64,000 nt of DNA from a virus (IMGVR_UViG_3300020429_000529:326762-390761), one strand, 5' to 3'; counted from the first letter of the stretch, positions 3,111 through 37,577 are shown. Numbers and translations: made by a program. Notes: generated from the letters alone by a model not told the origin.

Positions 3111-3194
3111 GGGTCGGTGACTGAGAGGCCGAAAGTATCCGCCTTTTAAGCGGGCAGCGAAAGCTCATCGCGGGTTCGAATCCTGCCCGGCCCA
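3111..3194 (+). tRNA. class II-like tRNA with anticodon UUU; variable arm carries a GCGAAAGC hairpin
   Basis: gggtcgg/ccggccc acceptor, 3-bp D-stem with 11-nt loop, anticodon arm tccgc-CUUUUAA-gcggg, variable cagcgaaagctcatc, T-arm gcgggTTCGAATcctgc. Confidence 0.5.
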
Positions 3195-3201
3195 CTTCAC
3201 T

Positions 3202-3702: not shown

Positions 3703-3832
3703 TTTAGAGAACGAGTCGAAGAGGCTTCGGTTATCACTTTGATTTTGATTCAAAATGCCCAAAGCGCCTGCCTGTAAAGCAGGAAATGCTGGGGGTAAAA
3801 ACACCGATCTTCACCCCATATTCGTTCTTGTT

Positions 3833-3920
3833 TCTGAGGTAGCCGAGTGGTAGCAGGCGTCTGACTGTTAATCAGAAGGGAGTCACATCCCCGTCGTTGG
3901 TTCGAATCCAACCCTCAGAG
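3833..3920 (+). tRNA. Ser-like class II tRNA body with anticodon GUU (Asn codons)
   Basis: tctgagg/cctcaga acceptor, Ser-type D-arm gcc-gagtggtagca-ggc, anticodon arm tctga-CUGUUAA-tcaga, 19-nt variable arm, T-arm gttggTTCGAATccaac. Confidence 0.6.
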
Positions 3921-4042
3921 TTTTTGATCTACGAAAGGTCTTTCGTTCCGAGTATCTCACAAAATACGGAGGGCCTTGTCTTGAATGTCTGAATCCGTGA
4001 CTTGTGCTTCGCATCCGAAGCGCTAACGGAGAGGACAGAGAC

Positions 4043-5122
4043 ATGAAGAAGGTCACGGTCAAGCCAACGCTTGTAGCATCTGCTGGATACGCAAAACCAG
4101 TAAACGTTGGTCAGAATGACGATATATTGAGCGAAAAAGAACAGCAGATCAAGAATCTTGCTGATCGACTCATCGCCGCAGTTCCTTGCGCTTCATCGAA
4201 CTGGGCAGAGGACAACCCTCACCATATGGGCTACGGACTCAAGTCCGAGGGCGGCTGGATGAGGTTCATGCAAGGTCACATCTGGCGCTGCGTTAGCGAG
4301 CTTGGATACAGACGAGTCTTCTTCCATCTTCCGTTCGGCAAAACAACGGGTCAGTCTCCTTACGAAGTTCAGAAGCGAGCTTTTGAAGCTGAGTATGGGC
4401 AGCCTTACTCAGAATGGACAGACGAGCAGAAAGCCGTTCTCGAAGACATGGACCTCAAGAGATGGCATATGAGTATCGATCATATGCACGACCTCGAACG
4501 AACAGGTAACGAGTTTATCGCAACTGGCTTCTATGAGGCGCTCGATTGGATTCATGAACAGGATCCGGGCGTTGAGATCATCTGCTACATCGGTTCGTAT
4601 GATTCGGAAGACAAGGGTCGCATCGACAACGGCGAGTACGGCGCAGTCTTCTTTGATTGGTGGAGATCAGTTTATCCGTTGATCGATCGAGACTGGGTTT
4701 CGATCGTCTACGATGCTGCGGTCGGTAAAGAACCTGACCACATCAACGCAAGGCTTGCTCAGCTAACGCAAGACGCAAAGAACCGTCAGCCTGGACGCTT
4801 TGTAGGGGTTGAGGCTCGCATCCAGAAGGGTCGTCCTTGGCCGAACGATTTGGGTATGACATGCGTTGCTTGGGCGGCGACATGGAGACGACAGGCTCAT
4901 TCGGGGAACATTCCTCGGGAGTTCTTGACTGTTCCGCCGATCGTTGTTTACGACGGGCACGCAAAGAGTCAGGTCAACAACAGCTACAATGGCGACTGGT
5001 TCGCATACATGGCTGAAGACTTGGCGCAAAACTGTCAGATCGCTCCTTCTCCGCTTGGAGGCGAGTTTGCGACCCTGACAACGACAGAGGTAGCCGCCAG
5101 ATTGTTAGATCTGGTTTCGTAG
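4043..5122 (+). CDS. hypothetical protein, paralog family A (with 19743, 38401, 39861)
   Basis: GGAGAGGA RBS before the ATG at 4043; shares RVFFHLPFG / IICYIGSYD-type motifs with three other ORFs in the window. Confidence 0.65.
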   Translation: MKKVTVKPTLVASAGYAKPVNVGQNDDILSEKEQQIKNLADRLIAAVPCASSNWAEDNPHHMGYGLKSEGGWMRFMQGHIWRCVSELGYRRVFFHLPFGKTTGQSPYEVQKRAFEAEYGQPYSEWTDEQKAVLEDMDLKRWHMSIDHMHDLERTGNEFIATGFYEALDWIHEQDPGVEIICYIGSYDSEDKGRIDNGEYGAVFFDWWRSVYPLIDRDWVSIVYDAAVGKEPDHINARLAQLTQDAKNRQPGRFVGVEARIQKGRPWPNDLGMTCVAWAATWRRQAHSGNIPREFLTVPPIVVYDGHAKSQVNNSYNGDWFAYMAEDLAQNCQIAPSPLGGEFATLTTTEVAARLLDLVS

Positions 5123-5713: not shown

Positions 5714-5815
5714 GGTTACAACTTGCAGAGGTCTGGTACATCTGCGGCGCGTCGCGATTCCGTAAGCTCAGCGCGAGGGTCATTCGGCCCCTCAAGTCGG
5801 TTCGAATCCGAGACG
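5714..5815 (+). other. elongated tRNA-like element (acceptor ggttaca/cgtaacc, T-arm tcggTTCGAATccga) with about 30 extra nt
   Basis: Ends pair but the internal cloverleaf is not resolvable; possible intron-containing or decayed tRNA. Confidence 0.3.
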
Positions 5816-5861
5816 TAACCAAGCAGTATCGAGGGACGCTTCGATGTCTGCTTTTTGATTG

Positions 5862-5983
5862 CCCTGTGGCGGAATGGTAGACGCACGGAAGACATTCCGA
5901 TTCGCCGTTCGAGTCGGCAAAGTAGGCGGATGCGCTGAAATCAAAGGTAGAATGTAGGTTCGAATCCTACCAGGGCAACTTGT
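5862..5983 (+). other. elongated tRNA-like element with Leu-type D-arm (tggcggaatggtagacgc) and two T-arm-like hairpins
   Basis: Acceptor tgccctg/cagggca pairs across 122 nt; internal gccgTTCGAGTcggc and gtaggTTCGAATcctac. Confidence 0.3.
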
Positions 5984-6067: not shown

Positions 6068-6074
6068 TTTTGTT

Positions 6075-6146
6075 TGCCCCATGGTGTAACTGGCAACACG
6101 ACTGATTCTGATTCAGTTATTCCTGGTTCAAATCCAGGTGGGGTAG
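6075..6146 (+). tRNA. tRNA-Gln(CUG)
   Basis: tgcccca/tggggta acceptor, anticodon arm actga-UUCUGAU-tcagt, T-arm cctggTTCAAATccagg. Confidence 0.8.
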
Positions 6147-6150
6147 TTTA

Positions 6151-6287
6151 GTCAACGTGGTGTAACTGGCAACACACTTAAACGCCTTTCGCCATACCAT
6201 ACCTGTCTCGGGATCCCCGACAGGTCGAAGGATGGAAGGTTAACCTCTTGCAAAGGAGAGCTTCAGGTTCGAATCCTGACGTTGGCA
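6151..6287 (+). tRNA. insert-containing tRNA-like gene (137 nt); anticodon arm atypical (ctct-UUGCAAAGG-agag)
   Basis: Acceptor gtcaacg/cgttggc, D-arm same as the tRNA at 6075, then an insert of about 65 nt sharing aacgcctttcgccataccata...gtcgaaggatggaaggttaac with 6291-6421, T-arm tcaggTTCGAATcctga. Confidence 0.45.
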
Positions 6288-6290
6288 TTT

Positions 6291-6421
6291 CTCAGCGTGG
6301 TGTAATGGTAGCACAGTAACAAACGCCTTTCGCCATACCATATTTCGTAAGAAGTCGAAGGATGGAAGGTTAACATTCCTCTGTAAAAGGAAAGGTTCGG
6401 GTTCGAATCCCGACGCTGGGT
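6291..6421 (+). tRNA. insert-containing tRNA-Tyr(GUA)-like gene (131 nt)
   Basis: Acceptor ctcagcg/cgctggg, D-arm, about 55-nt insert paralogous to the one in 6151-6287, anticodon arm ttcct-CUGUAAA-aggaa, T-arm tcgggTTCGAATcccga. Confidence 0.5.
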
Positions 6422-6425: not shown

Positions 6426-6537
6426 GGTGCCGCACGAGGAATGATCCCAGAAGCGCGCGATCCCAAGATGAAGGAGAGGCCTCTCTTGATTCGAGGGTGA
6501 TCATGGGATGGAGGTTCGATGCCTCCCGGCGCTGTTT
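6426..6537 (+). other. elongated tRNA-like element (acceptor ggtgccg/cggcgct, T-arm ggaggTTCGATGcctcc; possible anticodon loop UUGAUUC)
   Basis: 112 nt with an internal palindrome gagaggcctctc; structure only partly resolvable. Confidence 0.3.
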
Positions 6538-6540
6538 GAT

Positions 6541-7124: not shown

Positions 7125-7550
7125 ATGGGCTCATACGCCTACGCTCGACACCTTCTGACTTCGCAGAAGAAGATCAGACTGCCGCTCGTCATCTGGCAGC
7201 ACGGTAAGAGCTTCCGCAGGGAGCAAGATCAAGTCACCAAGAACATGAGACTCAAGGAGTTCTATCAGCTTGAGTTTCAGATCATGTTTGCGCCGACCAC
7301 GGCAAACGACTACTCGATCAAGCTCATTCCTGCGATTCGGCGTATCATCGAGTTGTTCATCGGTCCCTGCCGAGTCGAGCCGTCCGACAGACTGCCCGAC
7401 TACGCAGAATGGACTCAAGACATTGTGAGAGAAGCGAACGACATGGAAGTCTGTTCAGTTTCTCTCCGTCACGACTTTGATCTTGCAAAGGTCTTGGAGG
7501 TGGCGATCGGAACTGATAGACTTGTTTACAACCACTTTGATTGGCTGTAA
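7125..7550 (+). CDS. class II aminoacyl-tRNA synthetase motif-2 fragment (GlyRS/HisRS-like), 141 aa
   Basis: GKSFRREQDQVTKNMRLKEFYQLEFQIMF resembles class IIa motif 2 (GKxFRNE...REFxQxExE); no in-frame ATG upstream. Confidence 0.45.
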   Translation: MGSYAYARHLLTSQKKIRLPLVIWQHGKSFRREQDQVTKNMRLKEFYQLEFQIMFAPTTANDYSIKLIPAIRRIIELFIGPCRVEPSDRLPDYAEWTQDIVREANDMEVCSVSLRHDFDLAKVLEVAIGTDRLVYNHFDWL

Positions 7551-7554
7551 GCTG

Positions 7555-7932
7555 GTGAAGATTTGCAGAGGAACCAACAGAATCGTCTTTCTTGTTTCTC
7601 GCTGGGCGATCAAAATCCCAGCGTTCATTCCTCATGGCTGGTCTTTGGGAATCTATGGCATTCTGGCATCGCTGCGAGAAGCCGGATCCTGGGAGGCCGT
7701 CTGCTGCGAAGGCGCTGCAAATGAGGACTGCAAGCCAATGCTTGTTCCTGTCCGTTGGAGCTTTGCGGGATTGATACTGGTTCAGCCCCGAGGTACAGAG
7801 GTATCAACGCAGGAATGGAATGATTGGGATGGCTTCGATAGAATGACAAAGTTCTGCGGAGACATCAAGCAGGAGAACACTGTTTGGTTGAACGGCAAAA
7901 TACGAGTATGCGACTATGGATCGGTCGCATAA
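7555..7932 (+). CDS. hypothetical protein with a protein-kinase-like catalytic-loop/DFG segment (GTG start)
   Basis: CGDIKQENTVWLNGKIRVCDYG resembles HGDLKPENILL...IKIxDFG; start chosen at the first in-frame GTG after the upstream stop. Confidence 0.35.
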   Translation: MKICRGTNRIVFLVSRWAIKIPAFIPHGWSLGIYGILASLREAGSWEAVCCEGAANEDCKPMLVPVRWSFAGLILVQPRGTEVSTQEWNDWDGFDRMTKFCGDIKQENTVWLNGKIRVCDYGSVA

Positions 7933-7935
7933 CTT

Positions 7936-8017
7936 GCGGGCGTAGTCTAACGGTAAGGCACTGGCCTTCGAAGCCAGCGGTGAAAATCCATTGGGGGTTC
8001 GAATCCCTCCGCCCGTG
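7936..8017 (+). tRNA. tRNA-Arg(UCG) with an enlarged 15-nt variable region
   Basis: gcgggcg/cgcccgt acceptor, anticodon arm ctggc-CUUCGAA-gccag, T-arm gggggTTCGAATccctc. Confidence 0.65.
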
Positions 8018-8031
8018 TTTAGGAGAATCAG

Positions 8032-8866: not shown

Positions 8867-8957
8867 GCCCCCGTAGCTCAATTGGAAGAGCGGCCGGCTT
8901 CTATCCGGTTTAGACCAACTAAGGTCGAGGTTGAGGGTTCGAGTCCTTCCGGGGGTG
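8867..8957 (+). tRNA. tRNA-Arg(UCU)-like with class I D-arm and a 23-nt variable arm
   Basis: gcccccg/cgggggt acceptor, anticodon arm gccgg-CUUCUAU-ccggt, variable hairpin gacc...ggtc, T-arm gagggTTCGAGTccttc. Confidence 0.55.
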
Positions 8958-8976
8958 CTTTGAAAGGAGAGTCGCT

Positions 8977-11434: not shown

Positions 11435-11518
11435 GAGGGTGAAGTCTATTCGGCATGACGCCTGCCTTCCAAGCAGGAGAGCGAAAGCTCATTGCGGGTT
11501 CGAATCCCGTCACCCTCT
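11435..11518 (+). tRNA. class II-like tRNA with anticodon UCC; variable arm carries a GCGAAAGC hairpin
   Basis: gagggtg/caccctc acceptor, 3-bp D-stem, anticodon arm cctgc-CUUCCAA-gcagg, variable agagcgaaagctcatt, T-arm gcgggTTCGAATcccgt. Confidence 0.55.
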
Positions 11519-11593: not shown

Positions 11594-11841
11594 CGAGAGA
11601 AAGGCAGCCGATCCATCGCTCTATCCGCCCCTGCATTCTGCATGCGGACGAGAGGAAGGTCGGGGCACCACTGCTAACAAGGTAGGAGACGGACCTGCGC
11701 AATGCGGGCGAGTTGCTTGGACTACCGAGGGTGCAACCTCATGCAGGCTGAGCGGGTGAGCAGCGCTATGAAGCCGGGTCGAGGGCCATTAGAGAAATGA
11801 TGGAATAGAACAGAACCCCGCCTACGGGCACTTTTCTCTCG
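11594..11841 (+). ncRNA. rnpB: RNase P RNA (rnpB)-like element, reduced size (about 250 nt)
   Basis: gagaggaaggtcggggcacc resembles P4 5' strand GAGGAAAGUCCGGGCUCC; acagaaccccgcc resembles P4 3' strand ACAGAACCCGGCU; terminal P1-like pairing cgagagaaag/cttttctctcg; no ORF. Confidence 0.45.
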
Positions 11842-12338: not shown

Positions 12339-12614
12339 ATGGTTAAGAGACGATTTGGCGTTGATTTCTACAGCGACGGAGGTGCGTTGACCCTCTCTCC
12401 TGGAGAGATCGGCGAGAACGAGTCCGGTTGGACCATTGTTGGAGAAGTTCATGAAGACTACTACGAATGGGTGAACTACTTTGAAGCCTCTCATCCTGAC
12501 TTCGGTTGGGTAAAGGGAGACTTCGAGGATGAGGTGAAAGCTTCATCCAAGAAGGCGTTCGACCATTTCTGGAAGCATCATGAACCTTCGGCTTGGGACT
12601 ATCAGGACATCTAA
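12339..12614 (+). CDS. hypothetical protein
   Basis: Internal ATG with a strong AAGGAGA RBS within ORF 12144-12614. Confidence 0.5.
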   Translation: MVKRRFGVDFYSDGGALTLSPGEIGENESGWTIVGEVHEDYYEWVNYFEASHPDFGWVKGDFEDEVKASSKKAFDHFWKHHEPSAWDYQDI

Positions 12615-12641
12615 CCAGCAGCCGCCTTCGGGCGGCCCTAT

Positions 12642-12712
12642 GCTCCCATGTTGTAGTGGTAGCCTCCTTTCTTGGTACGAAAGTGGCGTCGGTTCGATTC
12701 CGACTGGGAGCT
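12642..12712 (+). tRNA. tRNA-Thr(GGU)
   Basis: gctccca/tgggagc acceptor, anticodon arm ctttc-UUGGUAC-gaaag, T-arm gtcggTTCGATTccgac. Confidence 0.85.
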
Positions 12713-12729
12713 TTGTCGATAAGAGAAGC

Positions 12730-13101
12730 ATGGAACTCAACACAAACATCAAGAGAGGCAAAGTCTGGGGCAATACTTCTTGTCTCTTCGCAAAGAACAA
12801 TGTCGAACTGCATCGGATCGAGGCAAAGAAGGGCGGCTTCTGCTCCAAGCATTGTCACAGATCTAAGTTCAATATGTTCTTTGTCGAAAACGGCGCTCTC
12901 AAGATCACGATTTACCGTCCTGATGCTGGTCAAATCCTTGAAGATGAGACTATTATCAAGACTGGCGAATCAACGCTGGTCGAACCTGGTTTGTATCACA
13001 AGTTTGAGGCTCTTGAAGATTCGGTTGCCCTTGAGGTTTACTGGGTCGAGCTTGAACACGATGATATAGAGAGGGAGTCGGTTGGCGGCATGAAGCAGTA
13101 A
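12730..13101 (+). CDS. cupin domain protein
   Basis: First ATG after the tRNA; HRIEAKKGGFCSKHCH...LVEPGLYHKFEA cupin-like beta-barrel motifs. Confidence 0.55.
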   Translation: MELNTNIKRGKVWGNTSCLFAKNNVELHRIEAKKGGFCSKHCHRSKFNMFFVENGALKITIYRPDAGQILEDETIIKTGESTLVEPGLYHKFEALEDSVALEVYWVELEHDDIERESVGGMKQ

Positions 13102-14176: not shown

Positions 14177-14500
14177 ATGAAGCCATCTGATCTCCTTGAA
14201 TGCGCCTTTGAACAGAGGGGCCTGAGAGAAGAGGACTTGGTTCGAAAAGATTTGTTTGATAAGCAGATCTTCATGGGCGCAGGTCATCCATCAGATCCAA
14301 AACGCAACTTCAGCGGACAAGATGTTGCGCTACTTCATGCAAAAGTTGACCAGGTTTGTAGTTTGATATCTGGCTTACAGCAAGCTCCAAGGCCGGGCAC
14401 CGACGATAACTTCGAAGGATATGCTCAAGAGCTTGCAGACGGAGAAAAGGCCATCGATCTTGCCGTTCAAGATATTGTTCGGGCACTCAAGGGAAGCTGA
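14177..14500 (+). CDS. hypothetical protein
   Basis: ATG with AAAGGA RBS, downstream of the TTG start used by the ORF track. Confidence 0.5.
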   Translation: MKPSDLLECAFEQRGLREEDLVRKDLFDKQIFMGAGHPSDPKRNFSGQDVALLHAKVDQVCSLISGLQQAPRPGTDDNFEGYAQELADGEKAIDLAVQDIVRALKGS

Positions 14501-16230: not shown

Positions 16231-16301
16231 TGGGGGTGTGATGTAATGGAAGCATCTGAGGCGTTGAACCTCGGCGCGGGAGTTCGATTCTCTCCGCCCC
16301 T
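16231..16301 (+). tRNA. tRNA, anticodon uncertain (loop CGUUGAA with G33; UUG if canonical)
   Basis: gggggtg/cgcccct acceptor, atgt/gcat D-stem, T-arm gggagTTCGATTctctc. Confidence 0.5.
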
Positions 16302-16324: not shown

Positions 16325-17068
16325 ATGATAGACTTTGAACGAGGCGCAAAAGCCACAGGTACAAAGTTCTACTTTCTGACAGGCAACGATGCCCTCAGAG
16401 AGTTGCAACTCTGTATGAAGATGATCGAGTTTCATGCCGAACGAGGATACGAGCCGGTCATTCCGCCGTATCTCGTCAACAAGAAGACATGCGAGATGGC
16501 TGGTATCCTTCCTCGCTTCGAGGGAGACTTCTACGAGACGCAGGACGGGTTCGTTCTGATTCCGACCGCAGAAACGCCCCTCGTCGGTTTTCGCGCCAAC
16601 GAGATCATCCCCGAAGAAGAACTCCCGCTCAAGTATGTCGCCTTCTCGCCCTGTTTCCGCAGAGAGGCTGGCGCAGCGGGGAAGAAGGACAAGGGCCTCA
16701 AGAGGGTCCACCAGTTCCACAAGATCGAACTGTTCGTCATCTGCAAGCCCGAAGACTCGGAGCGGCTCCATGAGGAGATGACGGCTCAGGTCGAAGAGCT
16801 TCTTGATGAACTGGGCGTCGAGCATCGAAGGATCGAGCTTGACGAGAACGATCGTCCCCCAACGTCGGCCAAGACGTATGACATCGAGGTTCGAGCAGGA
16901 GAAGAATGGCTTGAAGTCTCTTCGATCTCGAACACGCTGGATCGGCAGGCAAAGCCCGCTCAGATCCGTTATCGGCCACGACCGCAGGCGAAACCCGTCA
17001 AGTGTCATATCTTGAACGGTTCGGGTGTCGCGCTGCCTCGGCTGACTCTTGCGATGTTGGGTGGATGA
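16325..17068 (+). CDS. seryl-tRNA synthetase catalytic core (class II), lacking the N-terminal tRNA-binding arm
   Basis: GAAGGAGAC RBS; GTKFYFLTG...GYEPVIPPYLV, FSPCFRREAGAAGKKDKGLKRVHQFHKIELF (motif 2) and the GSG motif region; the ORF starts about 25 nt after a tRNA. Confidence 0.75.
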   Translation: MIDFERGAKATGTKFYFLTGNDALRELQLCMKMIEFHAERGYEPVIPPYLVNKKTCEMAGILPRFEGDFYETQDGFVLIPTAETPLVGFRANEIIPEEELPLKYVAFSPCFRREAGAAGKKDKGLKRVHQFHKIELFVICKPEDSERLHEEMTAQVEELLDELGVEHRRIELDENDRPPTSAKTYDIEVRAGEEWLEVSSISNTLDRQAKPAQIRYRPRPQAKPVKCHILNGSGVALPRLTLAMLGG

Positions 17069-21081: not shown

Positions 21082-21106
21082 GGCCGGGTGCCCGAGCGGT
21101 TAGGGG
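21082..21106 (+). other. tRNA 5' fragment (acceptor ggccggg + Tyr-type D-arm cccgagcggttagggg)
   Basis: Acceptor strand pairs with the 3' fragment at 21974-21980 (cccggtc); no anticodon or T-arm follows. Confidence 0.45.
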
Positions 21107-21181
21107 TTGGATGAAGGAATGATAGTCAACTAATCGAATACCTATAAATCGTCGATATACACGATAGATAGGAGTTCGATT

Positions 21182-21859
21182 ATGAGACAGAAAACCAAGG
21201 AGCGAAGTCAGGCTATCGATCTTCGCAAGCAGGGTAAATCGCTATCAGAGATTCAAGAAAAGCTTGGCGTTGCTCGCAGCACCGTTAGCGTTTGGGTTAG
21301 AGATGTTGAGCTTTCTGATGAACAGAGAAACAGGCTCGATAGCAGAAAACCAGCAAAGCCCGAGGCTTTTTATCAGCAAAGATCTGAAGCATATAGAGCC
21401 AAGCGACAAGAGTATCAACAGCGAGGTAGGGATCTTGCTCGCAAATTTGCATCTGATCGATTGTTCATAGCAGGATGCATGCTTTATTGGGCAGAAGGGT
21501 CAAAGGCAAAGAACTCCGTCATATTCTGTAACTCAGATGCAGACATGATGAGAATGTTCATTCGGTTTCTCTTGAAATACTTCGATGTCACAAAACATGA
21601 CATTCGAGCAAGATGCAACTTCTATACGGATATTCATTCTCAGGATGAGGTAGAGTCTTATTGGCAATCGAACCTTTCATTGCCTGAAAGTTCTTTCACC
21701 AAAAGCGTTGTTGATTACAACAATCGATACAGCAAGAGACAGGGCAAGCTTGAGTACGGAACCTGTTCAATTTCAATACATAGTACCGAGCTTGTTCAGA
21801 TTATCTTTGGTTCTATTTCTGAGATCGCTGAAATAGAAGGCGAGAAATGGTTAGACTGA
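21182..21859 (+). CDS. HTH + LAGLIDADG-like homing endonuclease (tentative)
   Basis: N-terminal helix-turn-helix (SLSEIQEKLGVARSTVSVW); IAGCMLYWAEGSK resembles a single LAGLIDADG motif; lies between the two tRNA fragments. Confidence 0.45.
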   Translation: MRQKTKERSQAIDLRKQGKSLSEIQEKLGVARSTVSVWVRDVELSDEQRNRLDSRKPAKPEAFYQQRSEAYRAKRQEYQQRGRDLARKFASDRLFIAGCMLYWAEGSKAKNSVIFCNSDADMMRMFIRFLLKYFDVTKHDIRARCNFYTDIHSQDEVESYWQSNLSLPESSFTKSVVDYNNRYSKRQGKLEYGTCSISIHSTELVQIIFGSISEIAEIEGEKWLD

Positions 21860-21860: not shown

Positions 21861-21945
21861 GCCCGTATGGCCGAGTGGCGAAGGCGGCGGATTGCAAATC
21901 CGCTGAGGCTTGACCTCCACGTTGGTTCGAATCCAACTGCGGGCT
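21861..21945 (+). tRNA. Ser-like class II tRNA body with anticodon GCA (Cys codons)
   Basis: gcccgta/tgcgggc acceptor, Ser-type D-arm ggccgagtggcgaaggc, anticodon arm gcgga-UUGCAAA-tccgc, 17-nt variable arm, T-arm gttggTTCGAATccaac. Confidence 0.6.
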
Positions 21946-21981
21946 TTGAAGACTACGAGGGTTCGAATCCCTCCCCGGTCT
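21946..21981 (+). other. tRNA 3' fragment (T-arm gagggTTCGAATccctc + acceptor cccggtc)
   Basis: Pairs with the 5' fragment at 21082; no anticodon arm upstream. Confidence 0.45.
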
Positions 21982-22340: not shown

Positions 22341-22615
22341 ACAGCGTCATCTACGAGACCTCTGAGGGCTACAGGACGCACGTTGGCATTCAGGACGGCA
22401 CAGAGTATGGCGGTCCCTTTCCGACGCTCACAGAGGCTCAGGACGACTGCTGGAAGACAGAGAAGATCATGAACGGAAACGACATCGACGTTGATGCGAT
22501 TCCGATTATGCGCGGGTCTCTTGGAGATAAAGGCCCCGACAGAATCCCGGGAGAACTGTCGGACGCCAAACGAGAGGGTTCGAATCCCTTGACCCGCTTT
22601 ATGAGACCGATTTGA
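22337..22615 (+). CDS. hypothetical protein (3' end contains a tRNA-like T-arm/acceptor sequence)
   Basis: ATGA overlap; the C-terminal EGSNPLTRF is coded by gagggTTCGAATcccttgacccgc, which pairs with gcgggtc at 22512. Confidence 0.3.
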   Translation: MNSVIYETSEGYRTHVGIQDGTEYGGPFPTLTEAQDDCWKTEKIMNGNDIDVDAIPIMRGSLGDKGPDRIPGELSDAKREGSNPLTRFMRPI

Positions 22616-24297: not shown

Positions 24298-25320
24298 ATG
24301 GCTAATCCATCATTCGATCAAATTTCTGCGCTTCTGCAGAACATCAGTATACTGTCAGGAACATCGTCGTCGCTTCATTCTGAGCTTTCATCCATAGCTT
24401 CGGAACTTAAAGGGCGAGAAGATAGTCGTCAGCCTCGTATCGGAAAACCATACAAGTCAGACATTGATTTGACGAGCGCTATTGAGAAGGCCCAATCGTT
24501 GCTAATCGAATCTGGTAGTCTTAGTAGCAACTTTGTAGATCTCATCAAGATCATTCAAGATAGGCCTGATGAGCCAGTAGTTTCAGGTTGGACACTTGAA
24601 CCGTCAACAAGAGTTTGGATGTCGGTCAACATGCCGTTGTATTACGGGGACCGACCGGGCTTTCCGTTGCTCAGAGAGCATATCGATCTTGCGAACCAAC
24701 TGAATGCAGGTTTGTTGCTCAACAATCTGTATGGGCAAAGAACTGGTCATCATTACGATGCGGGGTGGCCCGAGAGCAAGATCGAAGAGATCGAAGCCGA
24801 GTTTTCTCGGTACTCTGGCGCAGCAATACAGCTTTACTTGTGCATCAAAGAACGTCTCGAAGACGGATCGCTGATTGACGTAGATGATGATCGAGTAAGG
24901 GATCACTGGATCCCGTTGGTTGAGCAGCTACGGGGCTGGATAGGAGAGGAGCCCGCTATCGATATTGGAATCGATGTTGGTTCTGCGAATCCTTCGAGAT
25001 GGAAAGATGTGCATGAGAGATTGCTTGCTCCGAACGGTGTCATGAGAACTGTTCTTGAGGCATCTGTAAGAGACAGCAACGGATTGCCTGCTCTCGACGT
25101 TCCTCAAGAGTTCCTTCATCAGCACATATTGGCGAGATGGGGTTCCGTTGATCCGTTGCCAACTCTTGAGACGCCTGGTTCGGTATTGCTGTGGATGACG
25201 AATCATGCATGGCAGAATGAGGCCAACAAGCAGGGCGTCATCGAGCAGTCTTGGGAAAAGGGATATGCTCTTGCTCTCGAAGCGGAAGATCTTGAGCAGT
25301 TCTCTCACCTGTTGATTTGA
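24298..25320 (+). CDS. hypothetical protein
   Basis: GGGAGA RBS; 340 aa. Confidence 0.65.
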   Translation: MANPSFDQISALLQNISILSGTSSSLHSELSSIASELKGREDSRQPRIGKPYKSDIDLTSAIEKAQSLLIESGSLSSNFVDLIKIIQDRPDEPVVSGWTLEPSTRVWMSVNMPLYYGDRPGFPLLREHIDLANQLNAGLLLNNLYGQRTGHHYDAGWPESKIEEIEAEFSRYSGAAIQLYLCIKERLEDGSLIDVDDDRVRDHWIPLVEQLRGWIGEEPAIDIGIDVGSANPSRWKDVHERLLAPNGVMRTVLEASVRDSNGLPALDVPQEFLHQHILARWGSVDPLPTLETPGSVLLWMTNHAWQNEANKQGVIEQSWEKGYALALEAEDLEQFSHLLI

Positions 25321-26984: not shown

Positions 26985-27212
26985 ATGATGCGCCCAAGTT
27001 GGACAGCACAGACAGACGAAGCGCGGTTTCTATTTTCGCGCGCAGAACGAATCATCGAGGACTCTCGAATCGATGAGTTCGTTGGTCCAGCATTGTCCGA
27101 CGAGGAGATTGAGTTAGCGCACAAGGCCATTCGGATGCTCGCTCAAGCGAGATTGATCGAAGCCAATCACCGACACAGATGCAGACGAGAAAGCGATGAC
27201 GCGAGCGACTGA
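26985..27212 (+). CDS. hypothetical protein
   Basis: 75-aa ORF. Confidence 0.4.
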   Translation: MMRPSWTAQTDEARFLFSRAERIIEDSRIDEFVGPALSDEEIELAHKAIRMLAQARLIEANHRHRCRRESDDASD

Positions 27213-27972
27213 TCTGATCTATGGGAACTACAAAGTTCTCTCGCCTGAAAACCAAGTCATGTTCAGGTGCAACAAGAAGCGATACAACTGGTATCTGCAA
27301 AGAGGTCTGGCCGAGGAGATCGGGGACAAGACTATCCGTCTGACGTTCACTCCGAACGGCGGAGGTTACGCCAAGAACTCGTTCTACACGCAGGACCGAG
27401 AGAATCGTTGCGTGATCTGCGGGACGAGAGAATCCCTAACCAGGCACCATGTTGTTCCTCATTGCTATCGCAAGCACTTCCCGGAAGATCTCAAGCGCAA
27501 TAACTTTCATGACATCTTGCCTGTTTGTCTTGATTGCCATGAAGAATACGAGAGCAACTATTCGCTTCAGATGCGCAAGCGTTTGGAGAAGAAGTATGAT
27601 GCGCCGTTGCAGGGCAGGGGCTACACCGAAGCGGATGATGACTATCTGCATGCTATCCGTTTGGCTGGATGCTTGATCGATTATGGAGATCGCATACCAG
27701 AAAAGCGACAAGAAGAGATGAGAGAGATCATCCGAGGCGCTACAGGCAAGGAAGTTGACGAACGTCTTCTGATTGAGTTGGCAAATGACAAAGTGAAGAA
27801 GCTCTCACGAAGCGAGCATTTCTGTTCGCATGGCGAGCTTGTTATGGATCAGGTCGAAGATATTCAATCATTCGTGGAGGAATGGCGGCTCGATTTTCTG
27901 GAGAATATGGAGCCGAAGTACCTTCCGAAAGGCTGGAAGGTCGATATGCCTGTAGACCATCACCTTGTATGA
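27196..27972 (+). CDS. HNH endonuclease domain protein
   Basis: CVICGTRESLTRHHVVPHCYRKHF...CLDCHEEYE is an HNH/zinc-finger nuclease signature. Confidence 0.6.
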   Translation: MTRATDLIYGNYKVLSPENQVMFRCNKKRYNWYLQRGLAEEIGDKTIRLTFTPNGGGYAKNSFYTQDRENRCVICGTRESLTRHHVVPHCYRKHFPEDLKRNNFHDILPVCLDCHEEYESNYSLQMRKRLEKKYDAPLQGRGYTEADDDYLHAIRLAGCLIDYGDRIPEKRQEEMREIIRGATGKEVDERLLIELANDKVKKLSRSEHFCSHGELVMDQVEDIQSFVEEWRLDFLENMEPKYLPKGWKVDMPVDHHLV

Positions 27973-29468
27973 CGAACATCGACTACAAAGATGACGAGCT
28001 ATTCGAAAGCTCTTTCATGTTCTCCAAGATTGGCAAGTGTCTTGTCTCTCTTGAGGGACGTTTTCTCAAGGTAAATCCTGCGCTCTGTTCTATTCTCGGG
28101 TATTCTGAGAAAGAACTGCTTTCGATTACGTTTCAAGAGATCACGCATCCAGACGATCTTGACATAGATGTAAAGCAGGTAAAAAGATGTATAGCAGGAG
28201 AGATATCAACTTATTCTCTTGACAAGAGATACATCAAGAAGAATGGCAAGGTCGTTTGGGCTGAGTTGAATGTTGCAATCACGAAGAGTCCGTCACGGGA
28301 TGACTTCTTTATCGTTGAAGTTGTCAACATTCAAGACAGAAAGACTCAAGAGAAGCTGCTTCTCAAGCATGAGGCATCTCTAAGAGACTACAGAGATAGG
28401 TTGGAGATTGCGCTTGATGCAAGTCAGATAGGTATTTGGCGATGGTATCCCGAAGAGGACAAGCTCGAATGGGATGACCGTATGTTTGAGATCTTTGGAG
28501 TTGAACGAAATGAGTTCACTGGTAAAGTTAATGATTGGCGTCTGACTGTTATCGAAGAAGACAGAGCCAAAGCGTTTTCGTATGTATTGGAAAGCGTACA
28601 GAAGGGTTTGCCATTCGAGACCGAGTTTCGTATCTATCGCAAAGGCGAGGTTCGCTATATCGCTGCCTATGGCCTTCATGACATAGACAGCACGGGCGAA
28701 GTAATCAGCATGATCGGCGCAAACTACGATATTACTGATCTGCGAATCGCTGAACAAAACCTGATACGATCAAACGTAGAACTTGAGAAGTTTGCGTATG
28801 CTGCCTCTCATGATCTCAAAGAACCGCTTCGGACAATCGGCGGTTTTGCTACGTTGTTGAACAGCAATCATAGGGAGAAGCTTGATGAGCAAGGACAGAA
28901 GTTCCTTGACTTCATTCTGCAAGGCTGTCAGAAGATGCAGTCTCTCATTGATAGTCTGTTGAACTACTCGAAGGTTGATAGGAGGCTTACTGAAGGTTTC
29001 CAAGAAGTCGATATGAGGGCAAAAGCAAAGAAGGCTTGCGAGTACCTGATTGCAAAGATTAGCGAGGTTGATGCAGATGTTGTTTGGGAGGAAGATCTAC
29101 CTGTTGTTTGGGCTCATCCCGATCTCATGCTACAAGTTGTTTTGAACCTTGTTCACAACGCTCTCAAGTTCCGTCATCCTGATCGCAAATGCAAGATCAG
29201 CATCAACTGGGAAGATTTGGGGCACTTGTACCGATTCAATATCACAGACAATGGGATCGGCATCGAAGAAGAGTATCAGGAGCAGATTTTCAGCCTGTTC
29301 CAAAGGCTTCATGACAGGTCTATGGAGGGATCAGGTATGGGGCTTGCTCTTTGCAAGAAGATCATAGGAAGCTTCGGCGGTCAGATATGGGTCGAATCCG
29401 AATACGGGAAGGGTTCGAAGTTTAGCTTCACGATTCCAAAGGGGAGGGGAGAAAATGAGGGTAGCTGA
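27969..29468 (+). CDS. PAS-domain sensor histidine kinase
   Basis: ATGA overlap; PAS repeats, H-box HDLKEPLRTIGGFATLL, HATPase_c region with GSGMGLALCKKI. Confidence 0.8.
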   Translation: MTNIDYKDDELFESSFMFSKIGKCLVSLEGRFLKVNPALCSILGYSEKELLSITFQEITHPDDLDIDVKQVKRCIAGEISTYSLDKRYIKKNGKVVWAELNVAITKSPSRDDFFIVEVVNIQDRKTQEKLLLKHEASLRDYRDRLEIALDASQIGIWRWYPEEDKLEWDDRMFEIFGVERNEFTGKVNDWRLTVIEEDRAKAFSYVLESVQKGLPFETEFRIYRKGEVRYIAAYGLHDIDSTGEVISMIGANYDITDLRIAEQNLIRSNVELEKFAYAASHDLKEPLRTIGGFATLLNSNHREKLDEQGQKFLDFILQGCQKMQSLIDSLLNYSKVDRRLTEGFQEVDMRAKAKKACEYLIAKISEVDADVVWEEDLPVVWAHPDLMLQVVLNLVHNALKFRHPDRKCKISINWEDLGHLYRFNITDNGIGIEEEYQEQIFSLFQRLHDRSMEGSGMGLALCKKIIGSFGGQIWVESEYGKGSKFSFTIPKGRGENEGS

Positions 29469-29889
29469 GATTCTCCTTGTTGAAGACAACCCTGCAGACA
29501 TTGAGCTTACAAAAGAAGCTCTGTTCGCTGAACGTTTTCAAGTCAACTTGCATGTCGTTACAGATGGCGTTGAGGCTATACGCTTTCTAAACAGAGAAGG
29601 AGAGTATGCTCACGCCATTCGGCCTGACATCATTTTTCTGGATCTCAATCTCCCTAAGAAAGACGGCAGGGAGGTACTTTCTGACATAAAATCGAACGAT
29701 AAGTTCAAGAGTATACCCATTGTTGTGCTTACAACTTCTGACAATGCCAGCGATGTCAATGATAGCTACCAGAAATACGCAAACTGCTACATACAGAAGC
29801 CCATGGACTTTGTGGCCTTCAGAAGAGCCATACAATCCACAAAGAGTTTCTGGTTTACAGTTGTAAAGCTACCAGAGGGAGGAGGATGA
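29455..29889 (+). CDS. response regulator receiver protein (CheY-like, single domain)
   Basis: ILLVEDNPADIELTKEA...IIFLDLNLPKKDG...KSIPIVVLTTS. Confidence 0.8.
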   Translation: MRVAEILLVEDNPADIELTKEALFAERFQVNLHVVTDGVEAIRFLNREGEYAHAIRPDIIFLDLNLPKKDGREVLSDIKSNDKFKSIPIVVLTTSDNASDVNDSYQKYANCYIQKPMDFVAFRRAIQSTKSFWFTVVKLPEGGG

Positions 29890-30311
29890 TGGAAACAGTC
29901 AAGATCTTGCTGATAGATGATGACATCGCCTTCTGCGAACTGTTCAAAGCAAATCTTTCGCAGTTTGACTCTGGCGTGGAAGTCGAACTATCGGTTGCAT
30001 CAACCGCCGATGATCCGCTTGTAGATGCCAATAATCAGGACATTTACCTTGTTGATCACAGATTCTATGGAAGGCCCATGGCTCCTGAGATCGTCAAGAG
30101 GATCAAGAGGAATGGAGAGGGCAGGATATTCGTCATCTCGAAGTTTGGAGATTTCGATCTGCTCAAAGAGCTTCTAAACCTCGGCATTAGTGGATTCATC
30201 GATAAGGACGAGATAGACTACGCAGAGTTTTTGAAGTTCTGTGAGAGCATTTCTCAGACCAAGACTTCGCTTGAAGCGATTACGATGAAGTTGAACAGAC
30301 TCGGAGATTGA
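29886..30311 (+). CDS. receiver-like domain protein
   Basis: ATGA overlap; KILLIDDDIAFCELF...IYLVDHRF divergent receiver fold. Confidence 0.55.
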   Translation: MMETVKILLIDDDIAFCELFKANLSQFDSGVEVELSVASTADDPLVDANNQDIYLVDHRFYGRPMAPEIVKRIKRNGEGRIFVISKFGDFDLLKELLNLGISGFIDKDEIDYAEFLKFCESISQTKTSLEAITMKLNRLGD

Positions 30312-30372
30312 GTCATGAGTATTGAAAGGCTGGTTCCCTTGTAGTTAGTCCATAACTGCAAGGAGAATCAGA

Positions 30373-30714
30373 ATGAACAGAGCAGAACGTCGCAGAAGAA
30401 CCCGTAAGGTTCAACTCCGTCGATACCGGCTCATCCGTTACAGAAATGATACGGACGGTCACTACTCTTGGAGAGGGGAGTGGCAAGAGCCTATGTGGTG
30501 GTTCGACCACGAGAAAGATTTCGGACAGCTTCGCAACGACCAGAACTCAGATTATGCCTGTTGGTTCAAGGCTCATGAGAGAGATCTCTGGGCAATGGGC
30601 AAGCGAGTCAAGGCTATTCGTGCCAACCTGGATTTTGCAGAGGCGCTCGAAGAGCAGGGCTTCACTCATAAGTTGAGGATGAGTATTTACGCAGGCACCG
30701 GCCTTTGGGATTAG
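30373..30714 (+). CDS. hypothetical protein
   Basis: AAGGAGAA RBS; 113 aa, basic N-terminus. Confidence 0.6.
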   Translation: MNRAERRRRTRKVQLRRYRLIRYRNDTDGHYSWRGEWQEPMWWFDHEKDFGQLRNDQNSDYACWFKAHERDLWAMGKRVKAIRANLDFAEALEEQGFTHKLRMSIYAGTGLWD

Positions 30715-30796
30715 CAGGTGCAGGCGTTTCTGCGTACAATATAGGTGCGCCGCTGTATCGGACAGCGACCGATGAAACATCTGACGGAGATCGCCC

Positions 30797-33544: not shown

Positions 33545-33575
33545 CCCACTCCGAGAGCCTTGTCTCTCCTCTACG

Positions 33576-33606
33576 CCCCTCGGGGATTCGTTCCCGAGGG
33601 GTTTTC
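33576..33606 (+). terminator. rho-independent terminator after the MVP gene
   Basis: cccctcggggattcgttcccgagggg hairpin followed by TTTT. Confidence 0.65.
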
Positions 33607-33622
33607 TTTCGCGGGCACGGCA

Positions 33623-33650
33623 TTGCCGGTGAAAGACTGAATGGTATAAT
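33623..33650 (+). promoter_or_regulatory. promoter TTGCCG-16-TGgTATAAT (extended -10)
   Basis: Perfect TATAAT at 33645-33650 preceded by TG; about 125 nt upstream of the ATG at 33775. Confidence 0.5.
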
Positions 33651-33774
33651 GGGCTTCGGTCGATAAGACCGCAGACAACTGAAGATTCCCAGGAGCGGTT
33701 CCTGGAAACTCCAACCGGCTGAAAACAAACCTGATAGGCGGTTAGCCGGTACGCCTACTGTAGGAGGTACATCA

Positions 33775-34596
33775 ATGATGTATACCGCTCATTTTGTGTG
33801 CGCCATCAAAGTCGATGGCAAGACGATGCGAGAGTTCAATTCTGAGGGCAGCAAGGATATTTACCTGCCCTTCGGTTCTGATTACTCGCTCTACCTTAAG
33901 AACATGGATTCGCGCCGAGCCGTTGTATCGATCTCGATCGATGGCGAGGATGTCCTTGACGGCACTCAGATCGTCATCGATGGTAACGACTCCATGGAAC
34001 TTGAAGGCTTCCTGAACTCGTCGTCTAACCTTGTCAAGAACAAGTTCAGGTTCATCGAGAAAAGCGACAAGGTTCGAGAGCATCGGGGCGAGGAGCCTGA
34101 GGATGGTCTGATTCGGGTTGAGTTCCAGTTCGAGGAGCCTGCTCCTCCGCCTCCTCCCGTTACTCCTTGGCCTCGTCGCAGAGATCGCTACCCTGATGAT
34201 CGCCCTTGGCGTCCTGATGGGCCGTACTTTGCTTCTCATACCAAGGGTATCGATGGGGCTCCGCAGTCGAGCATCCTTCGAGGCGTTGGCGGATCGAGCG
34301 AGGTTTCTGTTCAGTCGTTCAACTGTACGCATACGCCCTGCTCGCATACTCCCGTCAATGATGAGGGTATTACGGTTGCGGGCGCTCAGACGCATCAGAA
34401 GTTCGGCACGACCTGGGTTCGTCGTCTCGATCCTCAGAAGCATGTCATGGTCTTCAAGCTGCGAGGCGAGACCGGACAGCAGAAGCCTGTTTCTCGTCCT
34501 GTGACGGCTCGGAGAAAGGTCAAGTGTCCGACCTGCGGCACGCCGAGTCGTTCTGACGCTCGCTTCTGCGGCGAATGCGCTACGGCGCTCGTCTAA
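33775..34596 (+). CDS. hypothetical protein with Pro-rich linker and C-terminal zinc ribbon
   Basis: GTAGGAGG RBS; C-terminal KCPTCGTPSRSDARFCGECA. Confidence 0.7.
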   Translation: MMYTAHFVCAIKVDGKTMREFNSEGSKDIYLPFGSDYSLYLKNMDSRRAVVSISIDGEDVLDGTQIVIDGNDSMELEGFLNSSSNLVKNKFRFIEKSDKVREHRGEEPEDGLIRVEFQFEEPAPPPPPVTPWPRRRDRYPDDRPWRPDGPYFASHTKGIDGAPQSSILRGVGGSSEVSVQSFNCTHTPCSHTPVNDEGITVAGAQTHQKFGTTWVRRLDPQKHVMVFKLRGETGQQKPVSRPVTARRKVKCPTCGTPSRSDARFCGECATALV

Positions 34597-34604
34597 GGCA
34601 CTAA

Positions 34605-34640
34605 CCCTCTCAGGGGGCGCGAAAAAATCGCCCCTGAGGG
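34605..34640 (+). terminator. strong hairpin (13-bp stem) without a clear U-tract; terminator-like or regulatory
   Basis: ccctctcagggggcg...cgcccctgaggg inverted repeat just after the stop at 34596. Confidence 0.35.
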
Positions 34641-34749
34641 CTTGCAGGTGAATCGGAAAGGGCCTATACTCCGTGGACCTCTGGCGGACTAAGGCCGAAA
34701 AAGCCGACCACTGACAGAGGAATCGTCCTGACTACGCATGTATAGGGAC

Positions 34750-34761
34750 AAGCCTCTTTGA
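34750..34761 (+). promoter_or_regulatory. CTCTTTGACAAC motif copy immediately upstream of the tmRNA 5' end
   Basis: Related to the motif copies at 1817, 11548 and 26157. Confidence 0.3.
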
Positions 34762-34767
34762 CAACCT

Positions 34768-35118
34768 GGGGGTGATATGGAATCGACCGAATGATGTAGG
34801 TTGATGATCGCGAGTCGGGGATGCATGCTCAGGCCCCGTTATCAAGGTATGCACAAATTAGTTGCCAACAGCAACACCCTCCGCATGGCTGCTTAATCAG
34901 CCTGCTCGCAACCCGAAGACACCGATATTCGGGAAGCGAAAGACCATCGGGTTAGGCATCGTCTTCAACGCCTGAGGATTCGATGACCGAAACTAAAAGG
35001 GCTGCTCCGAAGGTCATGCTGTCGCTGGCAGGACTGAGGCTAAGATAAATCAGCGAATACACTCGTAGAGGTCTCTGCTGACCCATTCGACACCGGGGTT
35101 CGAGTCCCCGCACCTCCA
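34768..35118 (+). ncRNA. ssrA: tmRNA (ssrA), tag reading frame ANSNTLRMAA*
   Basis: The 5' end GGGGGUGAUAUGGAAUCGACCG resembles the tmRNA consensus GGGGCUGAUUCUGGAUUCGACGGG. The 3' end ccgggguucgaguccccgcaccucca pairs with the 5' acceptor with G3:U70. The internal ORF gcc aac agc aac acc ctc cgc atg gct gct taa gives the tag. Confidence 0.8.
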
Positions 35119-35126
35119 CTTCAGAA

Positions 35127-35151
35127 AGGCCCGCCGCAAGGCGGGTTTTTC
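35127..35151 (+). terminator. rho-independent terminator (GCAA tetraloop) after the tmRNA; shared with the convergent minus gene
   Basis: gcccgccgcaaggcggg hairpin followed by TTTTT. Confidence 0.7.
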
Positions 35152-35654: not shown

Positions 35655-35661
35655 GGTATCT

Positions 35662-35700
35662 CCTAAGAGGAAAAAAGGCCGCCCGCCGCAGAACGACGGA
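35662..35700 (-). terminator. putative terminator downstream of the AAA+ gene (minus strand)
   Basis: GC-rich imperfect hairpin followed by TTTTTT on the minus strand. Confidence 0.35.
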
Positions 35701-35733
35701 CGGCCCGGGTATGCCCGGCAATGCCGGAGCAGA

Positions 35734-37407: not shown

Positions 37408-37577
37408 ACCCTTAGTCGTTCCCGAGGTTTCTTGCTTCGATCCGTTCGAAGCGATCTGCCTCGCTGATTACTGAATGTCATTATGGCGGTTTCGCTGTCA
37501 CCTGCAAGTCGAGAAACAAGGTGCAAGGAGAATCCTTTACAATAGGCTTCGTAAACGAAAGATCGGAGACAGGTGAA

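Follow-up and report, generated by a model that had tools for sequence, protein, structure and literature searches.

RESULTS

Organization of elements A, B, and C

The 64,000-nt stretch IMGVR_UViG_3300020429_000529:326762-390761 (here called the window; positions are counted from its first letter) belongs to a 498,610-bp metagenome contig (ENA ERZ17089788) and carries a densely packed array of tRNA genes. Two genes on the plus strand of this array, elements A and B, lie head to tail between a tRNA-Gln gene (6074 to 6147) and an odd tRNA-like element (6426 to 6533), with neighboring genes separated by spacers of 3 to 5 nt. Both have the body of a tRNA that is interrupted directly after nucleotide 26, ahead of the anticodon-type arm, by an insert predicted to fold into an extra arm. 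A third member of the family, element C, has its insert at the same site.

Element A (6151 to 6287) spans 137 nt including its discriminator A (6287) and combines a cloverleaf body with the extra arm and a noncanonical anticodon arm. The acceptor strands (6151 to 6157 and 6280 to 6286) pair at 7/7 positions, and the D arm, GTGT-AACTGGCA-ACAC (6160 to 6175), which has the same sequence as that of the adjacent tRNA-Gln at 6074, is followed by A26 (6176). The 68-nt insert (6177 to 6244) is closed by a short AU-rich helix; beyond this come the 10-bp helix P1, in which one A is bulged, an internal loop of 7x4 nt, and finally the distal hairpin P2, as judged from the minimum free energy (MFE) fold, the RNAalifold consensus, and pair counts. 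Its conserved 5' block, AACGCCTTTCGCCATACCATA (6181 to 6201; exact second copy at 6322), contributes the upstream strands of P1 and of the internal loop, and its conserved 3' block, GTCGAAGGATGGAAGGTTAAC (6224 to 6244; exact second copy at 6354), the corresponding downstream strands. Between them lies the variable 22-nt P2, CCTGTCTCGGGATCCCCGACAG (6202 to 6223). The anticodon-arm equivalent, CTCTT-GCAA-AGGAG (6245 to 6258), forms a 5-bp stem with a GNRA tetraloop; a tRNA-Cys anticodon loop, TTGCAAA, can be read from the sequence only via a weaker stem with a mismatch. The T arm TCAGG-TTCGAAT-CCTGA (6263 to 6279) and the 3' acceptor strand CGTTGGC (ending at 6286) complete the body.

Element B (6291 to 6421) is 131 nt long including its discriminator T (6421) and has the extra arm together with a Tyr-type anticodon loop. 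Its acceptor strands (6291 to 6297 and 6414 to 6420) again pair at 7/7 positions, and the D arm GTGT-AATGGTA-GCAC (6300 to 6314) is followed by A26 (6315). The insert (6316 to 6374; 59 nt plus one A) has the same architecture as that of A: blocks identical to those of A (6322 to 6342 and 6354 to 6374) flank an 11-nt P2, TTTC-GTAA-GAA (6343 to 6353), whose GNRA tetraloop reads GCAA in the close strain L147. A preliminary description of this DNA had noted a perfect Tyr-type anticodon arm in B, and TTCCT-CTGTAAA-AGGAA (6376 to 6392) indeed offers anticodon GUA together with U33 and a purine, A37. The T arm TCGGG-TTCGAAT-CCCGA (6397 to 6413) and the 3' acceptor strand CGCTGGG (ending at 6420) follow.

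Element C was found by a structural scan in a related phage (contig L172, 355 to 476). It reads GCCTGTG TG ATGT AATGGTA GCAT G, then the insert CTAAACGTCTTCTGCCGAACCTTA CTCTTCGGAG TCGATGGATGGAAGGTTA, then TCTCT ATGCACA AGAGG TTGT TCAGG TTCGAAT CCTGA CGCAGGC T, which brings the range of the inserts to 52 to 68 nt. The anticodon loop has 7 nt with U33 and with C37 (AUGCACA). C is solitary: two small open reading frames (ORFs) flank it, the tRNA cluster begins approximately 440 nt downstream, and the neighboring protein is 69% identical to its counterpart in the window.

None of the three elements is called by ARAGORN at full length, and the Rfam tRNA model matches A and B only in part (A, 17 bits; B, 28.8 bits over model positions 9 to 63; gathering score, 29). 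After in silico removal of the insert, ARAGORN reports tRNA-Tyr(gta) for B and tRNA-Cys(gca) for C, where U73 is present, both textbook cloverleafs of 71 to 72 nt, and for A a tRNA with an abnormal 6-nt anticodon loop. The view that A and B are two paralogous tRNA genes holds as far as tandem paralogy goes, but A is not a normal tRNA gene, since a 5-bp stem with a GCAA tetraloop is the most stable form of its anticodon arm. In the same way, the proposed insertion of 55 to 65 nt between the D arm and the anticodon arm is right as to its site, after nucleotide 26, but not as to its length, which is 59 to 68 nt in A and B. No tRNA intron known from bacteria or phages occupies that site, in line with its earlier description as noncanonical.

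Selection on the tRNA body

All three elements have a 7-bp acceptor stem, a D arm with GG, and a T arm with a TTCRA loop; A and B also share a 4-bp D stem with a GG loop, the T loop TTCGAAT, and an ordinary 4-nt variable loop after the anticodon-type arm. U33-G34-N35-A36 is common to the three anticodon-like loops, and all 21 cloverleaf pairs are paired in A, B, and C alike. Between A and B, whose bodies are identical at 45 of 57 comparable positions (79%), four of these pairs differ on both sides (1:72, 5:68, 27:43, and 51:63), two differ on one side in a compatible manner, and none is broken. With C as the outgroup, the double change at 5:68 falls on A's own lineage, and C adds two-sided changes at 4:69, 10:25, 28:42, and 29:41 (read from the sequences). 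Zero broken pairs together with compensatory changes indicate selected tRNA-derived RNAs, not decaying pseudogenes. The acceptor, D, and T arms of A and B are thus intact, as the preliminary description had it: they are fully paired, and compensatory changes support the stems.

The close strain L147 carries both A and B, and their sole difference from the window is the change from GUAA to GCAA in the distal tetraloop of B, which falls on the N position of the GNRA loop. Most other aligned segments of the array differ by 1.6 to 7.6% between the two strains.

These observations bear on a nonfunctional origin, in which a selfish or accidental insertion into a tRNA gene was later duplicated, leaving decaying pseudogenes whose blocks are identical through recent conversion. 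The array is indeed dynamic (in L147, elements 5714 and 5860 have been deleted or replaced and an HNH-type ORF has been inserted beside tRNA-Val), the anticodon arm of A is defective, and the family is missing from the sampled region of the sister phage. However, 0/21 pairs are broken despite 21% divergence of the body, with four double compensatory changes, and the insert site and core persist in the phage of contig L172, where the flanking protein has diverged to 69% identity. Moreover, conversion would also homogenize the hairpin between the blocks and the adjacent tRNA arms, and A and B are conserved between strains beyond most other aligned array segments. We regard this origin as improbable.

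The cloverleaf changes also speak to a circularly permuted RNA of the Y-RNA-like YrlA type, which would begin with the 3' block of A, pass through the T arm of A and the D arm of B, and end with the 5' block of B, the two blocks pairing in trans. Because the blocks are identical, the 3' block of A could pair with the 5' block of B, and Rfam gives weak YrlA matches of 17.3 bits across the A/B junction and 22 bits nearby. These scores lie far under the gathering score of 69 (RF02553), C is solitary and has no tandem partner, and the changes at 1:72 and 5:68 preserve pairs within each element. Since they weaken the acceptor pairing between the A 3' and B 5' strands, which reaches only 6/7 with two wobbles, the permuted arrangement is disfavored and seems to us extremely improbable.

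Conservation and predicted fold of the insert

Both 21-mer blocks occur exactly twice in the window (6181/6322 and 6224/6354), in agreement with the shared insert blocks first described; no further copies exist at ≤3 mismatches, and shuffles predict 0. The blocks of A and B are identical at 42/42 positions (P ~5e-5 at the rate of the body, 45/57), and the 3' block of C matches them at 19/21 positions. Neither unrelated inserts nor decayed arms, the outcomes that had been named as contrary, were found: the block identity relates the inserts to each other, and the compensatory changes show arms that have not decayed. The bases at the borders vary (A|CUU, A|GUA, and G|CUA), and the interior is nearly invariant. 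Taken together, the alignments point to an arm under stronger, sequence-level constraint than the tRNA body.

Single-sequence MFE folding and RNAalifold on four distinct sequences give the same structure. P1 consists of 10 bp in which GCCUUUCG-CC pairs with GG-A-UGGAAGGU, leaving the bulged A; the 7x4 internal loop reads AUACCAU/CGAA, or GAACCUU/CGAU in C; and the base of P2 has an A-U pair followed by a C-G or U-G pair. A short AU-rich helix, UAA/UUA, can close the whole insert. Across P1 and the base of P2, 48/48 alignment cells hold standard pairs, compared with 25 to 56% in slid registers, and each of the three P1 substitutions is a C<->U exchange opposite G. The P2 sequences are unrelated across the members, and each nevertheless forms a hairpin, with loops AUC, GUAA/GCAA, and UUCG, which makes P2 the strongest structural evidence for a folded insert. 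A competing pairing, CCUU(U)CG with CGAAGG, is broken in C.

Search for relatives

Relatives of the region were collected via homologues of the ORF at 4004 to 5122; five of the contigs obtained are Phycisphaerales bacterial chromosomes or similar. A covariance model of the insert (R1), run over 273 kb of collected loci, returned A, B, and C and nothing more. The insert core was also scanned for in IMG/VR with exact or degenerate patterns, which gave chance matches only, none in a tRNA-like context. One scan of GTDB genomes likewise gave only chance matches, as did one scan of Joint Genome Institute (JGI) metagenome contigs, with a pattern too strict to catch C. No family member lies in the neighborhoods of relatives of the seryl-tRNA synthetase (SerRS) core described below, and the ORF at 24298 to 25320 is an ORFan.

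Comparison of the insert with known RNA classes

In Rfam searches with a 281-nt query, the insert matched no family, including the group I and group II introns, small ribozymes, and riboswitches, even at E ≤ 10, and known small ribozyme families (hammerhead, twister, twister-sister, pistol, hatchet, hairpin, and HDV-like) were likewise absent at E ≤ 10 with both the 281-nt and a 1601-nt query. The group I intron model (RF00028) gave no match at its gathering score or at E ≤ 10. By inspection, the insert bears no hammerhead, twister, pistol, hatchet, hairpin, or hepatitis delta virus (HDV) signature and no CUGAUGA/GAAA or comparable core. The complementarity of the blocks to the rest of the window, to the transfer-messenger RNA (tmRNA), and to the miniature RNase P RNA of the array does not exceed that of shuffles.

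Several candidates were dismissed. A weak U6atac match (17.9 bits; gathering score, 33) was judged to be due to chance, as the AGC triad is absent; nothing notable pointed to a promoter or terminator role for the insert; and the signatures of an integron attC site, a miniature inverted-repeat transposable element, or an IS200/605-type end do not fit by inspection.

The insert could itself be a ribozyme that cleaves itself or an aptamer that binds a ligand, in either case a small RNA of a new kind, with the conserved strands around the variable hairpin as its active core. Near-invariant strands flanking a variable, tetraloop-capped hairpin are typical of small ribozymes and aptamers, an alternative pseudoknot between CCAU and AUGG can be read from the sequence, and minimal HDV-like theta ribozymes adjoin phage tRNAs (bioRxiv 10.1101/2023.06.13.544163). 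Set against this are the negative Rfam searches for ribozymes and riboswitches (281-nt query, E ≤ 10), the missing signatures of known ribozymes, and a strand order incompatible with HDV; with three members only, a tertiary fold is also without covariation support. Such an RNA accordingly appears to have little probability.

The chief alternative to the reading favored below, which we hold to be somewhat unlikely, is that the insert is an intervening sequence excised after transcription. The closing helix would join the borders, and either an enzyme (a phage or host endonuclease with an RNA ligase) or the RNA itself would cut, so that B would yield tRNA-Tyr(GUA), C tRNA-Cys(GCA), and A a Cys-like RNA. 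The insert would constitute an intron class new to bacteria and phages, and its site is one at which only protein-spliced archaeal introns have otherwise been reported. The canonical 71- to 72-nt tRNAs that remain of B and C and the retention of U33-G34-N35-A36 in all three loops are in line with excision. So is the combination of GCA with U73 in C, which is the known tRNA-Cys identity set, as are the phage's cysteinyl-tRNA synthetase (CysRS) gene directly upstream of the tRNA array, an RNA ligase domain gene (PF09414) inside the array of the sister phage, and another tRNA of the window that is broken after the D arm.

Other observations contradict excision. A bulge-helix-bulge is absent from A and B by inspection: the first exon bases past the 3' border (CUCU in A and UUCC in B) lack a complementary stretch directly beyond the 5' border. 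Group I and group II signals are also missing, and 52 to 68 nt is far under the size of such introns. No splicing endonuclease, RtcB, or RNA ligase domain was detected by Pfam among the approximately 50 ORFs, those of the array included, in the 64-kb window of the ~500-kb genome. Variable borders around a near-invariant interior are the reverse of what protein-spliced introns have, and the product of A would be left without a normal anticodon arm. In its strongest form, with the insert as an unprecedented intervening sequence that either processes itself as a minimal RNA or is acted on by a phage splicing activity of its own, leaving tRNA-Tyr and tRNA-Cys, we consider the proposal unlikely. 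If true, this would be the first intron of such a kind and at such a site outside archaea and eukaryotes.

A proposed retained fifth arm

We tentatively favor the reading that A, B, and C are functional tRNA-derived RNAs with a retained, sequence-specific fifth arm that are cut from the tRNA array. They would be transcribed within the densely packed array and released from its transcript as tRNAs are, for which the array's own miniature RNase P RNA would be available; tRNA-like release is suggested by the intact state of the acceptor stem and of the T and D arms. The 52- to 68-nt segment after nucleotide 26 would stay in the mature RNA as a fifth arm, in which the near-invariant, purine-rich 3' strand (GUCGA-GGAUGGAAGGUUA) and the internal loop may form a site where a protein or RNA partner docks in a sequence-specific manner. 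The arm would leave the core at the junction that, in class II tRNAs, gives rise to the long variable arm, so that the L-shaped body, and the anticodon loop in B and C, could stay usable. An L-shaped, possibly still decoding molecule is conceivable.

Three features make us prefer a retained arm: its interior is nearly invariant while its borders vary, stable tetraloops cap the distal hairpin as in lasting structural RNAs, and the array is full of tRNAs with additional arms. On this reading, A, B, and C may, with corresponding caution, be described as tRNAs or tRNA-like RNAs that are private to the phage and tagged with an arm. In engineered tRNAs, aptamer hairpins attached to the variable arm are tolerated (PMC7590224).

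Several points weigh on the other side. Retention of the arm, processing by RNase P, and a docking function are what we infer beyond the demonstrated anatomy, conservation, and selection on cloverleaf and arm, and precise deletion of the insert yields a textbook cloverleaf for B and C, as it would for an intron. We know of no natural tRNA with an arm at 26/27; a literature search likewise turned up no account of phage tRNAs with an arm or intron there, and tolerance of such an arm by EF-Tu and the ribosome has to be presumed. P1 shows one-sided changes only, and in the absence of any double compensatory change the support for this helix is moderate; fold z-scores of the single sequences are modest (-1.4 to -2.0). 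In the data searched, the family is tiny, with three members in two phage lineages, and the sister phage L143 (77% protein identity) has a tRNA array with no family member in the syntenic 21 kb. The identity of the blocks in A and B could, in addition, partly reflect gene conversion between tandem copies. This is unlikely as its cause, because conversion would have had to leave both the intervening hairpin and the neighboring arms untouched and cannot account for C.

To our knowledge, the tRNAs of bacteria and phages have four or five arms at fixed places, and their introns are self-splicing and located in the anticodon loop. A structured segment at 26/27 would accordingly represent either a new design of tRNA-like RNA or a new kind of tRNA intron. 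In the former case, the tRNA body could be a scaffold for processing and stability, or the molecule a phage-private tRNA with a docking arm, which would be relevant to tRNA engineering and to the arms race over tRNA-targeting defenses.

Genome setting and host

Two independent assemblies of the genome measure 498,618 and 502,461 bp, and the sister lineage 486,961 bp; these near-equal sizes suggest a complete replicon of approximately 0.5 Mb, a marine phage-like element. Samples containing it come from Tara Oceans stations (ERZ17089788, ERR1726858, and ERZ25074452). The window holds 47 tRNAs (ARAGORN), the majority at 1 to 26 kb, plus one tmRNA. Many small ORFs lie between the tRNAs, including fragments of aminoacyl-tRNA synthetases (aaRSs), a homologue of the major vault protein (MVP), and a PARP. 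Only 1 of 10 window proteins tested has a PHROG match; megablast of the region 27000 to 47000 against GenBank phages gave no match, and blastn matches to GenBank phages are limited to ordinary tRNA parts.

We infer that the 0.5-Mb element is a phage because relatives of its stand-alone SerRS core occur on phage-type contigs, namely contigs with a phage portal gene and a 532-kb IMG/VR contig, and because the array of the sister lineage carries HNH, RNA ligase, and RNase H genes. Homologues of the ORF at 4004 to 5122 (46 to 53% identity) are located in the arginine operon region of Phycisphaerales genomes. This hints at the host lineage, and the element probably infects Phycisphaerae.

Other unusual features of the array

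Six tRNAs of the window, for Lys, Asn, Arg (two), Gly, and Cys, have long variable arms (3111 to 3195, 3832 to 3921, 7935 to 8018, 8867 to 8958, 11435 to 11518, and 21861 to 21945), a feature normally confined to Leu, Ser, and bacterial Tyr tRNAs. They often adjoin an isoacceptor of normal length. In the sister phage, tRNA-Arg(UCU) retains its arm, which shows a compensatory change, and the tRNA-Arg(UCG) orthologue has no arm.

ARAGORN misses further tRNA-like elements at 5714 to 5819, 5860 to 5977, 6426 to 6533, 2638 to 2721, 2727 to 2810, 16232 to 16301, and 22512 to 22597, in which an acceptor stem and a T arm are present and the D or anticodon arms are unusual or missing. Element 5860 has an "anticodon arm" with a GACA tetraloop and a 55-nt extra region, element 2727 carries a second CUGUAAA loop, and elements 5714 and 5860 are those deleted or replaced in L147. 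The elongated tRNA-like elements that had been placed near A and B thus do exist (5714 to 5819, 5860 to 5977, and 6426 to 6533), but the insert has no significant similarity to these or the other odd elements compared, and they therefore do not form one family with it. The tRNA-like gene at 1093 to 1163 has a 6-nt anticodon loop, called with the 2-nt anticodon "tt", and a gene called in a similar way in the sister phage is unlike it in sequence. In L143, a tRNA at 14410 to 14498 has a 21-nt anticodon loop (ARAGORN "ggaa"; Rfam tRNA, 54 bits), and a 142-nt element at 7538 to 7679 has an acceptor stem and a T arm only. Two tRNAs with anticodon CUA (amber suppressors, labeled Pyl by ARAGORN) lie far from the main array at 52817 to 52888 and 56907 to 56982.

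The tRNA at 21082, previously described as split by a homing endonuclease gene, is interrupted after the D arm, but the ORF in it is not recognized as a homing endonuclease. Its 5' acceptor strand and D arm (21082 to 21110) are separated from the T arm and 3' acceptor strand (21957 to 21981), the acceptor strands are complementary at 7/7 positions, and no anticodon arm is evident. Between the two parts lie a 225-amino-acid (aa) ORF (21182 to 21859), which has only a helix-turn-helix, IS630-like match at its N terminus, and a complete tRNA-Cys (21861 to 21945). In L147, an ORF with Cys-rich, HNH-like motifs is inserted beside tRNA-Val (12340 to 12900, corresponding to approximately position 6540 of the window) and has ahead of it a 26-nt copy of the 5' part of that tRNA, an arrangement that resembles the trace left by homing-endonuclease traffic in the array.

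A miniature RNase P RNA of bacterial type (222 to 242 nt) lies inside the tRNA array and abuts a tRNA gene. It was found in all three phage lineages sampled, at 11599 to 11840 (plus strand) in the window, 16524 to 16745 in L143, and 691 to 913 in L172. The signatures of the catalytic domain are retained (GAGGAAGGUCGGGGC ... ACAGAACCCCGC), and approximately 110 model positions of the specificity domain are reduced to 25 nt; the scores of 55 to 65 bits (E values of 1e-14 to 1e-18) are under the Rfam gathering score of 100. The literature consulted yielded no link between RNase P RNA and huge or jumbo phages.

Another product encoded within the array is a stand-alone SerRS catalytic core (247 aa; 16325 to 17068, plus strand), which matches residues ~150 to 400 of SerRS structures (E, 1e-55) and has no N-terminal coiled coil, the part that binds the variable arm of tRNA-Ser. 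It belongs to a family of 245 to 260 aa with >7000 matches at E < 1e-40, some of them on phage contigs; nearly all of the top 120 have that size. The sister phage shares a 141-aa fragment resembling a class II aaRS core (GlyRS/HisRS-like; 7125 to 7550, plus strand), which in the window lies 700 nt beyond B and is too short for a complete catalytic domain. The arm-decorated tRNAs of many specificities, the armless SerRS core, and the miniature RNase P RNA suggest that the phage has a partly private system of tRNA maturation and charging.

Farther downstream, the MVP homologue (915 aa; 30797 to 33544) has Vault repeats and a shoulder domain, and a protein with a PARP catalytic domain and a WGR domain (44620 to 46278) is encoded 11 kb from it. 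Eukaryotic vault particles consist of MVP, PARP, and small RNAs; a link between the vault and PARP genes and the odd tRNA-like RNAs would be pure speculation.

Comparison with known systems

Short introns outside the anticodon loop, including the region of the D arm and anticodon stem, occur in archaeal tRNAs, where introns at noncanonical positions have a bulge-helix-bulge and are cut by EndA (PMC4090602). The present inserts differ in having no such motif, in their bacterial-type setting (tmRNA and bacterial RNase P RNA), and in the conservation of the interior instead of the borders. Group I introns, the established kind of intron in bacterial and phage tRNA genes, resemble the insert in their sequence-conserved cores; in contrast, they exceed 200 nt, possess a P1-P9 core, and interrupt the anticodon loop, whereas the insert has 52 to 68 nt, lies at 26/27, and has no Rfam match.

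Theta ribozymes are likewise small structured RNAs (about 50 to 60 nt) linked to phage tRNA genes. However, they are located 3' of the tRNA and form an HDV double pseudoknot, while the insert sits within the tRNA body and matches neither the strand order of HDV nor any HDV-type model in Rfam. YrlA shares the principle of a tRNA-like module fused to a helical domain, which in that case binds a protein (Rsr), but it is permuted and ends in a non-tRNA stem, and the Rfam scores obtained here are 17 to 22 bits versus 69.

By analogy, the nearest natural precedent appears to be rnaC (139 nt) and rnaD (119 nt) of phage T4, stable RNA species 1 and 2, for which we know of no function. They lie head to tail with tRNA genes in the T4 tRNA cluster, next to tRNA-Arg and with spacers of a few bases, and rnaC ends in a tRNA-like T arm (CCGGG-UUCGAAU-CCCGG) and a partial acceptor strand. 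The T4 cluster also contains a homing endonuclease. A, B, and C differ from them in retaining a complete cloverleaf with one discrete arm, and there is no sequence similarity.

In architecture, the elements share the strand order D arm, arm, arm, T arm with the class II tRNAs (Leu, Ser, and bacterial Tyr) and with the allo-tRNAs and other novel cloverleaf tRNAs (Mukai et al., PMC5389517). All of these known tRNAs have five arms, and translation tolerates the extra helix that exits at the junction of their D and anticodon arms. The arm of A, B, and C differs from that of class II tRNAs in its length of 52 to 68 nt, conserved internal loop, and near-invariant sequence, as opposed to roughly 13 to 20 nt. 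In addition, the large arm stands 5' of the anticodon-type arm (26/27) and not at 44 to 48, so that, by strand order, the elements correspond to class II tRNAs whose large and small arms have traded places.

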